Of a stretch of 64,000 nucleotides of DNA, positions 36,666 to 39,101 are shown piece after piece; position 1 is the stretch's first letter, and every line of letters begins with the position of its first letter. A program made the translations under genes and the position numbers. Source of the stretch: Candidatus Eiseniibacteriota bacterium (GTDB lineage Bacteria; Eisenbacteria; RBG-16-71-46). Where the stretch lies: NCBI GenBank assembly GCA_038231135.1, contig JBBRLX010000003.1, positions 160,001 through 224,000 on the forward strand, written 5' to 3'. The notes beneath the pieces are model-generated. The model was not told the DNA's origin. It saw only the letters and a program-made list of their open reading frames with translations, and searched no databases.

Positions 36666-37792
36666 GAGGGTCTCCAGGCTGGTGTGGTGGTGGATGTGGG
36701 TCGGAGTGGCAGGGTGATCGTGATGCGCGCGCCGTGGCCGGGAGCGCTCGTGATCTCGAGCGCGTGCGGCGGCCCGGCGGCGCGCAGGCGCTCGCGCACC
36801 GAGTGGAGTCCGAACCCGTTGCCGCCGGGATCGGCAGCGGCGCTCATGCCGGGGCCGTCGTCCACGACCTCGAGCACCAGCACGTCGCCGTCGCGGCGGG
36901 CCACGATGCCGATCGTGGCGCCCTCCGCCCGCGGCGACACGGCGTAGCGCACGGCATTCTCGACCAGCGGCTGCAGCATCAGGCCGGGCACGGCGAAGCC
37001 GTCGAGGCCAGGCTCGATCGATTCCTGGATGCGCAGCCGGGTCCCGAACCGGGTGCGCTCGATCTCGAGGTACGCGCGCACGAACTCCAGCTCGTCGGTG
37101 AGCGGGCGATGTTCCTGCTCCGAGGCGCGCAGCGTGTGGCGGAACATGTCGGCCAGCCGCGTGACGGTGTCCTCGGCCTCGGCCGGCGACTCGCGCACCA
37201 GCGCGGCGATGGTGTTGAGCGTGTTGAACAGGAAGTGCGGCTGGATCTGGGCGCGCAGCGCGCGCAGCTCGGCGCTCGCCAGCTCGGCGCGCATGTGTTC
37301 GATCGCGCGTGCCCGAGTCATCGACTGGCGGTAGAACGCGATCGCGTAGGCGACGCCGCCGATGGTGATCGCGAACAGGACCGAATAGGCCCCCGAGCGC
37401 AGCACCGCCTCGGGGCTGCCGAGGAACCCCGGCATCACGAACGCCTGGATGAGCGCCGCGGCGACGTAGGAGCTGACGACGCTCGTCACCAGGTAGGCCG
37501 GCGCCTCGATGCGGATCGGCAACACGCCCGGGCCGCGCATCCGTCGCAGCCACGGCAGCCCCCACAGCTTGAGCGCCACGAGCGCGAGCCGGATGACGTA
37601 CGCGAACACCAACGAGATCTTGAACGCGGCCCAGTACGCCGACCGTGTGCCGCCGTACAGCGTGCCGAAGAACAGCGCGAACGCGATCGCATAGAGCGGC
37701 TGCTGCCACAGCGCCTCCCACAGGCGCTGGGCCCGGCGGGGGCGGGGCGCCGGGGCGTCGTCGGCGCAGTCAGCGGTACGGGGGTTCGTCAT
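36662..37792 (-). CDS. LytS/YehU-type membrane sensor histidine kinase
   Basis: About 4 TM segments; LRAQIQPHFLFNTLNTI, LEIERTRFG, LQPLVENAVRY, DDGPG, GFGLHSVRERL. Confidence 0.94.
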   Translation of the reverse strand: MTNPRTADCADDAPAPRPRRAQRLWEALWQQPLYAIAFALFFGTLYGGTRSAYWAAFKISLVFAYVIRLALVALKLWGLPWLRRMRGPGVLPIRIEAPAYLVTSVVSSYVAAALIQAFVMPGFLGSPEAVLRSGAYSVLFAITIGGVAYAIAFYRQSMTRARAIEHMRAELASAELRALRAQIQPHFLFNTLNTIAALVRESPAEAEDTVTRLADMFRHTLRASEQEHRPLTDELEFVRAYLEIERTRFGTRLRIQESIEPGLDGFAVPGLMLQPLVENAVRYAVSPRAEGATIGIVARRDGDVLVLEVVDDGPGMSAAADPGGNGFGLHSVRERLRAAGPPHALEITSAPGHGARITITLPLRPTSTTTPAWRPS

Positions 37793-37798
37793 GACTGC

Positions 37799-37868
37799 AG
37801 CTTAGGGTCGGCCCCGCCGACCGGCTACGCCCGGGGCGATGAACGGTCGCGCGGGGCCGATGAACGGT
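37799..37868 (-). promoter_or_regulatory. LytTR-type direct repeat (ACCGTTCATCG x2, 21-bp period) plus -10 TAAGCT, likely leaderless promoter of the kinase operon
   Basis: Identical 11-mers at 37837-37847 and 37858-37868; TAAGCT at 37804-37799 lies 6 nt before the ATG at 37792. Confidence 0.8.
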
Positions 37869-37892
37869 GGCGTGGGGCGCCGAAGGCCTGCG

Positions 37893-39101
37893 CTATGTGA
37901 TCCGCAGCACCATGACCGTCATGTCGTCGCCGGGCTCGACGCCGTCGAGGAACGTGTGCACGGCGGCGAGCAGGCGGGTCGTGATGTCCCGCGCCGTCAG
38001 GTCGCGCGGCAGCCGCTCGATCTCGCCGTAGATCCGGTCCTCGCCGAACATCTCGCCCGCGGCGTTCATGGCCTCGCTGATGCCGTCGGTGTAGAGCACC
38101 ACGCGGTCGCCCGGCTGGAGGTCGACCGCGGCCTCGTCGAACGTGGCGTTCTCGAGGATGCCGACGACGGTTCCGCCGCGTTCGAGCGTCTCGCGACCTC
38201 CCCCGGCGCGAAACACCACCGGAAAGTTGTGGCCGGCGTTCGAGAACGTGAGCCGCAGCGAAGCCGCGTCGATGCGGGCGAGGAAGAACGTGGCGAACTG
38301 GTTTACCGCGGTGCTGCGATAGACCAGCGTGTTGATGGTGCGCAGCACGGTGCCCACCTTAATCGAGCCGTTCGCCTGCGTGCGGAGCGACGCCTGCAGC
38401 ATCGACGACAGCAGCGCCGCCGGCACGCCCTTGCCGGCCACGTCGGCGATCGCGATCAGGTAGCCCTGATCGTCGGTGACGACGACGTCGTAGAAGTCCC
38501 CGCTGACCTGCTTCGACGGCACGTTCACGGCATGGATCTCGAGCCGCGGCAGCGAGGGAAACTCGGACGGCAGGAACGAGCTCTGGATGCGGCGCGCCAA
38601 CTCGAGCTCCTGGTCCGATTTCGCGCGCTCGATCGAGTCGCGATAGAACCGCGTGGCATAGACGAGCGCGGTGATCATCACCACGAACAGCACGGTGTAC
38701 ATGCCCATGACGAGCACCGCCTGCGCGTTGCTCATGAAGCCGGGCGCGATCGTTCGCTGCAGCGTGAACGCGGCGAGGAACGCGCCGACCATGGCGGCGC
38801 CGCCGAACACCAGGCCGTGCTGCCACACGCGCATCCGGCCCTCGATCGTGGGCAGGTGCGGCAGCACGACCCACTGCGTGAACCAGATGCACAGGTTGAT
38901 CGACAGAGCGAAGATCAGCGATCCGACGTAGGCCCCCAGGTATCCGTTACGCGACGGGCCGTTGATCGTCCCGAAGAACAGCGCGAACGGCACGGCCCAC
39001 AGCGGGACCTGCCACGCCATCTTGAGCAACTCCCGCCATGCTGACTCGCGCGGCAGCAGGCGGACGAGCGGCGCGCCGCCGCGTTCACGGGACCGCGTCA
39101 C
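37893..39101 (-). CDS. Membrane-bound PP2C/SpoIIE phosphatase with LytS-like sensor domain
   Basis: GTGA overlap with the pdxH stop; about 4 TMs; [44 protein letters not shown]. Confidence 0.9.

Follow-up and report, generated by a model that had tools for sequence, protein, structure and literature searches.

Two adjacent genes on the minus strand of the window, by which we mean the whole 64,000-nucleotide stretch of Candidatus Eiseniibacteriota DNA that was analysed, carry homologous copies of one four-helix membrane input domain, fused in one gene to a SpoIIE/PP2C phosphatase and in the other to a LytS/AlgZ-type histidine kinase. This fusion of one input to two outputs had been proposed in the original prediction and was confirmed by alignment and Pfam assignments. 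On balance, we favor the reading of an ancient, inherited module of phosphatase, kinase, and LytTR regulator, in which two homodimers read one intramembrane cue and feed a STAS partner-switch and the regulator, respectively.

The phosphatase, P0001 (37893..39020, 375 aa from the given ATG, the real start possibly lying a few codons upstream), matched PF07228 (E 9e-49), retains the catalytic motifs GDFYD, DVAGKG, YTDG, and DD, and fits the RsbU-type PPM phosphatases in its SpoIIE domain, metal-binding aspartate motifs, and predicted helical linker. Its input domain spans about 38616..39017, as delimited by alignment, family scan, and model. The kinase, P0002 (36662..37792, 376 aa), combines an input domain at about 37304..37711 (alignment; 160 bits on A1, the profile of the window-type sensor family) with PF06580 (E 4e-28) and PF02518 (E 1e-12) matches, i.e., His_kinase plus HATPase_c with an H-box. 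It is followed by the genes for an exported HusA-like TPR protein, P0003 (35790..36665; phmmer to PDB 6BQS), a TonB-dependent receptor in a HusB-like position, P0004 (33556..35790; PF00593, PF13715, and Plug), and, in the same operon, the cognate receiver-LytTR response regulator, P0005 (32760..33536; PF00072 and PF04397), all of P0001 to P0005 lying on the minus strand. On the other side of the phosphatase gene, on the same strand, lies pdxH, for pyridoxamine 5'-phosphate oxidase (39098..39754; PF01243 and PF10590). Elsewhere in the window, a receiver-SpoIIE phosphatase (27169-28299, plus strand) is convergent with the operon region and no close kin of P0001. A membrane-GAF-SpoIIE protein (57942-60350, plus strand) has a catalytic domain identical to that of P0001 at 138 of 236 positions and is its sister in the catalytic-domain tree (94/96); by its sequence, it appears to be a further domain shuffle that reuses the P0001 catalytic domain. 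The interval 39960-41430 is lower in G+C (0.585 for 40001-42000 vs about 0.70) and holds three short genes, exported or outer-membrane by look.

The homology of the two sensors had been seen by eye from quoted peptide pairs, all four of which we located in the translations of P0001 and P0002. Local alignment of the N-termini (~135 residues) gave a score of 224, with 50 of 137 positions identical (36.5%), which was attained by none of 2000 full shuffles (mean 33, max 65) and by none of 2000 shuffles in ten-residue blocks (max 88). In a search of the genome's 19,378 six-frame ORFs, the sole match of either sensor was the other one (E 7e-19 and 9e-21), the next-best ORFs following at E 3.3 and 0.3. 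The likeness stops, as predicted, where the helix runs into His_kinase (PF06580, residues 174-253) or SpoIIE (PF07228, residues 183-374), and at the DNA level it is confined to a single 58-base stretch. Both segments are hydrophobic, as they would be had hydrophobic helices simply converged, but chance is excluded by the shuffles in blocks and by the search of the genome's ORFs.

The sensor was called apparently unnamed in the original prediction, and this held: Neither N-terminus had a Pfam match at E up to 1, and an NCBIfam scan assigned neither. Across 62 aligned sensor members, Pfam returned scattered weak matches, with no family in more than 3 of the 62 and no profile match to named membrane sensors (MASE, MHYT, DUF3021, DUF2154, and others). 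Pfam scans of members of two related families, A5 and A6 (see below), gave 0, 0, and one match below cut-off. The 5TM-5TMR_LYT type, the input domain of LytS/BtsS proper, was lacking on the P0002 N-terminus (Pfam, E up to 1). The predicted number of about four transmembrane helices was borne out by an AlphaFold model of the P0001 sensor (pLDDT 87), which placed helices at residues 2-22, 26-57, 64-92, and 101-136, with short loops and no outside domain, the last helix continuing into the linker N-terminal to the PPM domain. With this model, Foldseek returned nothing under E 0.001 and VIA-align a best Z of 7.4 (rmsd 3.9, 127 aligned), which is in the generic helical range; this outcome demonstrates neither a new fold nor a different one. 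A PDB sequence search with profile A1 yielded weak aquaporin matches alone (best E 0.025), and the Atlas matches were all below 0.9, those bearing names being His_kinase clusters.

The distance from helix 4 to the active site was nearly invariant, with 33 residues from sensor to His in all 29 kinases measured and 50 residues from sensor to Asp in 25 of the 26 phosphatases measured. As scored with motif patterns, the catalytic motifs of relatives were intact in 30-31 of 31 phosphatases and 28-31 of 31 kinases, and the PHFLFN-type motif was present in all 31 kinases. The fixed distance and the intact motifs together fit signalling via a dimeric coiled coil, a mode that PMC12143880 proposes for kinases, cyclases, and PPM phosphatases, with inputs exchangeable between PPM phosphatases and kinases.

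We found the sensor domain in 44 of 61 relatives and in 106 of the 201 genomes of the phylum (Eisenbacteria). Loci were read in 31 of 43 matching relatives, to which the window was added; at 22 of these loci, the phosphatase gene lay directly upstream of the kinase gene. The usual order was phosphatase, kinase, HusA-like protein, TonB receptor, and LytTR regulator, with 21 of the 22 linked loci running on into the last three genes and one stopping at a contig end. One genome, G032, holds two full five-gene cassettes (L035 and L036), the kinase and receptor of L035 being frameshifted. A pdxH relative occurred in 22 of 61 loci (including L021 and L022), in most of them immediately before the phosphatase or kinase gene, and downstream of LytTR in three loci of family f3. 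A library-wide search (1.84 billion representatives) returned 136 matches, comprising 45 phosphatases, 10 kinases, 80 fragments, and 1 spurious match; no third output type was seen among them, the 80 fragments being too short to tell. A word-indexed A1 search at longer lengths gave nine matches, each a kinase or a phosphatase; with the distant kinase P0069 as the query, nothing but P0069 itself was matched.

Each partner was also found alone. The phosphatase and kinase genes were far apart in G014 (by 400 kb), G022, and G037; G004 and G012 had the kinase alone, the second sensor match being absent. In family f11, all 16 loci read (from 16 of 28 matching genomes) encoded a sensor-phosphatase with no kinase adjacent, and the f11 genomes listed in the phylum scan had one sensor match each, except G093 with two. 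The uptake genes were likewise separable: A full-length HusA-like match was absent from f11 (8 of 41 had weak C-terminal matches only), and the kinase and LytTR genes occurred without the uptake pair in G022, in G175, and at nine further loci, one of which possibly repeats a genome already read. Three f12 genomes had the operator described below, the sensor-kinase, and the uptake pair. A HusA/HusB-like pair as the necessary deliverer of the cue was dropped as an idea, the sensors being found also without that pair.

The original prediction had attributed the pair to a local duplication, which does not hold for the window genome: The pair was inherited across the order, and copies in the same genome were no closer than copies in different genomes. 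Kinase and phosphatase sensors were 35.1% identical within genomes (29 pairs) vs 34.8% across genomes (932 pairs), which, together with the order-wide presence, excludes a recent local duplication; that origin and the convergence of hydrophobic helices together retain a negligible probability. The sensor duplication is older than the order. In a tree of 61 trimmed sensors, which omits the long-branched G057, output labels changed 4 times, vs 20.5 times with shuffled labels, and kinase sensors as one side were not rejected in the Eisenbacteria family (AU p 0.64), where no homogenisation was visible. Phosphatase sensors were more diverged among themselves than kinase sensors (35.9% vs 42.1% identity), and because, in addition, the two window copies are only 36% identical, sensor specificity may differ between copies. 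The 36% identity, and an own-genome phosphatase sensor whose average rank for its kinase is 16th of 31, would suit an ancient tandem duplication whose sensors have diverged to different cues, so that their common ancestry is functionally meaningless now; so would the phosphatase genes that are often relocated and then lack the operator. Against this stand the operator kept before linked phosphatases and, as described below, an arrangement that recurs in three sensor families with sensors matched by lineage, as well as homogenisation within A5, and we consider this history of divergence improbable.

A predicted LytTR operator, two copies of ACCGTTCATC in a perfect direct repeat with a 21-base period, lies between the phosphatase and the kinase gene (37838..37868, minus strand). 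This repeat had one match in the window vs none in 100 shuffles. Allowing at most 4 mismatches within at most 300 bases upstream, we found it at 27 of 31 kinases, 17 of 22 linked phosphatases, and 1 of 9 unlinked phosphatases, compared to 0 of 620 resampled controls; the consensus was derived from the window and the same loci, which makes the count for kinases circular in part. With no more than 2 mismatches allowed, the repeat remained at 24 kinases, 10 linked phosphatases, and no unlinked phosphatase. The four kinases without the repeat each lay directly behind a phosphatase that had it. P0001 has no site directly upstream, and a second predicted operator (39831..39861, minus strand, from the genome scan), with 2 mismatches of 20, precedes pdxH and hence the phosphatase gene, a position before pdxH that was seen in the window genome only. 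Because the repeat stands upstream of most linked phosphatases, the phosphatase, when linked, likely belongs to the LytTR regulon as predicted from these sites. The core of the window repeat is identical to the AlgR site, for which PMC4064291 gives CCGTTCGTC or CCGTTCATC as the binding core, and its period is that of LytTR autoregulatory repeats, which are 9 bases long and 12 apart, for a 21-base period (PMC6193735). Further operator-like repeats with this period and 2-3 mismatches were present in genome G000 at C35:42325, C4:148780, and C9:70724, and these could possibly mark additional regulon members.

The difference between linked and unlinked phosphatases would also be expected if the phosphatase were a dedicated modulator of the neighboring kinase pathway, an induced feedback brake that acts either by pairing with the kinase via their matched membrane domains or by Ser/Thr dephosphorylation of the LytTR regulator. 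Adjacency kept across two phyla is in keeping with such a role, as are the homogenised sensors of A5, which would suit a common interface, and the Ser/Thr phosphorylation of AlgR reported in PMC11197903. It is harder to reconcile with the f11 sensor-phosphatases (no adjacent kinase at 16 of 16 loci), with the two genomes whose kinase has no second sensor match, and with the three in which the genes are far apart, and we regard a dedicated brake as unlikely. For the same reason, namely, that each partner is also found alone, a heterodimer is not required; an obligatory one, which the original prediction had raised as an option, is unlikely given the phosphatase-only and kinase-only genomes and the 400 kb between the genes in G014. 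A heterodimer prediction of the two sensors scored 0.01 and 0.00 (mark 0.32, controls not folded) and gave no answer either way.

A second phylum, likely the Acidobacteriota, has the phosphatase-kinase-LytTR order again, with matched sensors of related families, in 26 of 251 genomes (this and the following denominators take in the unpublished genome G226, on which no claim depends). When 78 foreign LytS-type N-termini were scored on A1, 2 exceeded 20 bits and 5 reached 15 or more, compared to 0 of 78 reversed and 0 of 390 shuffled N-termini at 15 bits or more. SpoIIE genes were found just upstream of foreign LytS kinases, and such pairs have their own common sensors. Profile matches numbered 20 of 251 genomes for A5 and 27 of 251 for A6, weak cross-matches included; reading the strong matches gave 14 A5 and 12 A6 adjacent phosphatase-kinase-LytTR triples, and for A5 additionally one pair split by contig ends and one with a frameshifted sensor. 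Profile comparison with hhalign, run without an unrelated four-helix control, joined A5 to A6 (probability 96) and A1 to A6 (probability 71, E 4e-5, 107 columns), while direct alignment of A1 and A5 gave no link (probability 5). As a separate observation, G202, of a phylum that is likely the Acidobacteriota too, has a lone Eisenbacteria-type sensor-phosphatase (L114), perhaps by transfer or mis-binning; A1 matched just 2 of 301 genomes of that phylum, which sets it apart from Eisenbacteria. At L250 (G235), a LytS kinase gene is followed by one for a receiver-SpoIIE protein and then by a LytTR-like gene, a different route by which a phosphatase can become part of a LytS/LytTR operon.

A tree built from 45 chosen sensors split the three families by lineage and not by output. 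Kinase sensors all on one side were rejected across families (AU p 0.0045, with a warning on long branches) and also in A5 alone (p 0.0025, without the frameshifted row of G271), whereas in A6, where no homogenisation was visible, they formed one side with support 96. The kinase domains of the three families made up a weak group that includes two outsiders (support 81). Phosphatase domains as a strict twin clade were rejected (p 4e-67), driven by three nested non-twin paralogues; with these included, the clade was not rejected (p 0.87), and the phosphatase-domain tree was therefore dropped as proof of independent fusions. The sensors grouping by lineage and not by output indicates repeated re-copying or homogenisation. 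Re-matching of sensors within a single old operon and several separate fusions are the two possible histories, and each needs more than one copying event. A broader claim, which we hold only tentatively and rate as rather doubtful, is that of a three-gene split-output system in at least two phyla, in which repeated copying or gene conversion holds a LytS-type kinase and an RsbU-type phosphatase to one unnamed membrane sensor, and one cue fires His-Asp transcription and a Ser/Thr partner-switch at once, both arms being induced by LytTR; if true, it would amount to concerted evolution of one domain between two enzyme classes. The gene after LytTR encodes a bactofilin-like membrane protein in 27 of 34 second-phylum loci, across both families (e.g., L225:7867-9117), and is likely a regulon target. 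Degenerate repeats were weakly enriched in the LytTR-bactofilin gap, where 11 of 27 scored at least 14, vs 12.6% of 1080 random windows.

In the favored reading of two homodimers on one intramembrane cue, a sensor without an outside pocket would respond to a molecule soluble in the membrane, to a membrane partner, or to the state of the envelope, and the sensed change would pass along helix 4 into the coiled coil. The kinase would pass phosphate to the LytTR regulator, which in turn would occupy the ACCGTTCRTC repeats and switch on expression of the kinase, the HusA/HusB-like pair, and itself, as well as the phosphatase in most lineages. The phosphatase would act RsbU-like on a STAS anti-anti-sigma factor encoded elsewhere. 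Repeated re-copying or homogenisation of the sensors between both genes would keep the pair of each lineage matched. We infer, as had been suggested originally, that both sensors read the same cue, which is strengthened because matched pairs recur in the second phylum. The window genome has five STAS matches and an adjacent RsbW-like/STAS pair on contig C43, none of them linked to the locus, and eight full SpoIIE domains plus one weak one, so that the seven other full domains could feed the same switch. Among the annotated neighbor clusters, a minority of all clusters, no conserved STAS, anti-sigma, or sigma neighbor was found.

Within the main full text of open-licence PMC and bioRxiv articles, we found no description of the sensor, of a twin operon shared by two phyla, or of sensors matched by lineage; input sharing between enzyme classes is known already, and the catalytic parts are standard families. 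With the module, an unnamed family of membrane sensors is defined that belongs to the four-helix LytS/AlgZ type, a type still poorly understood; the impact is limited by organisms that are apparently known from metagenome assemblies only.

Among known systems, AlgZ(FimS)/AlgR of Pseudomonas aeruginosa comes close: The first ~150 residues of the kinase are four predicted transmembrane helices of unknown function, and like the window module, it has a LytTR partner and the same binding core. AlgR sites need not be tandem repeats, unlike the window operator, and no twin phosphatase is mentioned in the portion of PMC4064291 at hand. The HdrRM and BrsRM systems of Streptococcus mutans share the 21-base period of their repeats, which are autoregulatory there, but their membrane proteins are enzyme-less inhibitors (DUF3021 and DUF2154) according to PMC6193735, whereas the window membrane domain is enzyme-fused and matches neither family. 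P0003 resembles HusA (PDB 6BQS, PG_2227) over residues 62-241 (phmmer E 4.9e-7). HusA of Porphyromonas gingivalis binds porphyrins and works with the receptor HusB, and in the Hus system (HusA, HusB, HusC, and HusD), as in the window, the HusA-like gene adjoins that of a TonB-dependent receptor. The Hus regulators are the MarR-type HusC and the membrane protein HusD (PMC12094164), in contrast to the kinase-LytTR pair here; husC and husD are not in the window operon, where the kinase and LytTR genes flank the uptake pair. The window-type sensor occurs also without HusA/HusB-like genes. The input exchange between PPM phosphatases and kinases likewise has one input family, a helical linker, and a SpoIIE-type phosphatase or kinase output, but its inputs (PMC12143880) are soluble, named domains, whereas the window input is an unnamed membrane domain and both fusions sit side by side in a LytTR operon, matched lineage by lineage. 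Such input sharing had been proposed as an exchangeable toolkit; the module supplies naturally occurring pairs within a single operon, matched in each of three sensor families and with invariant linker lengths, and hence makes the exchange idea directly testable.
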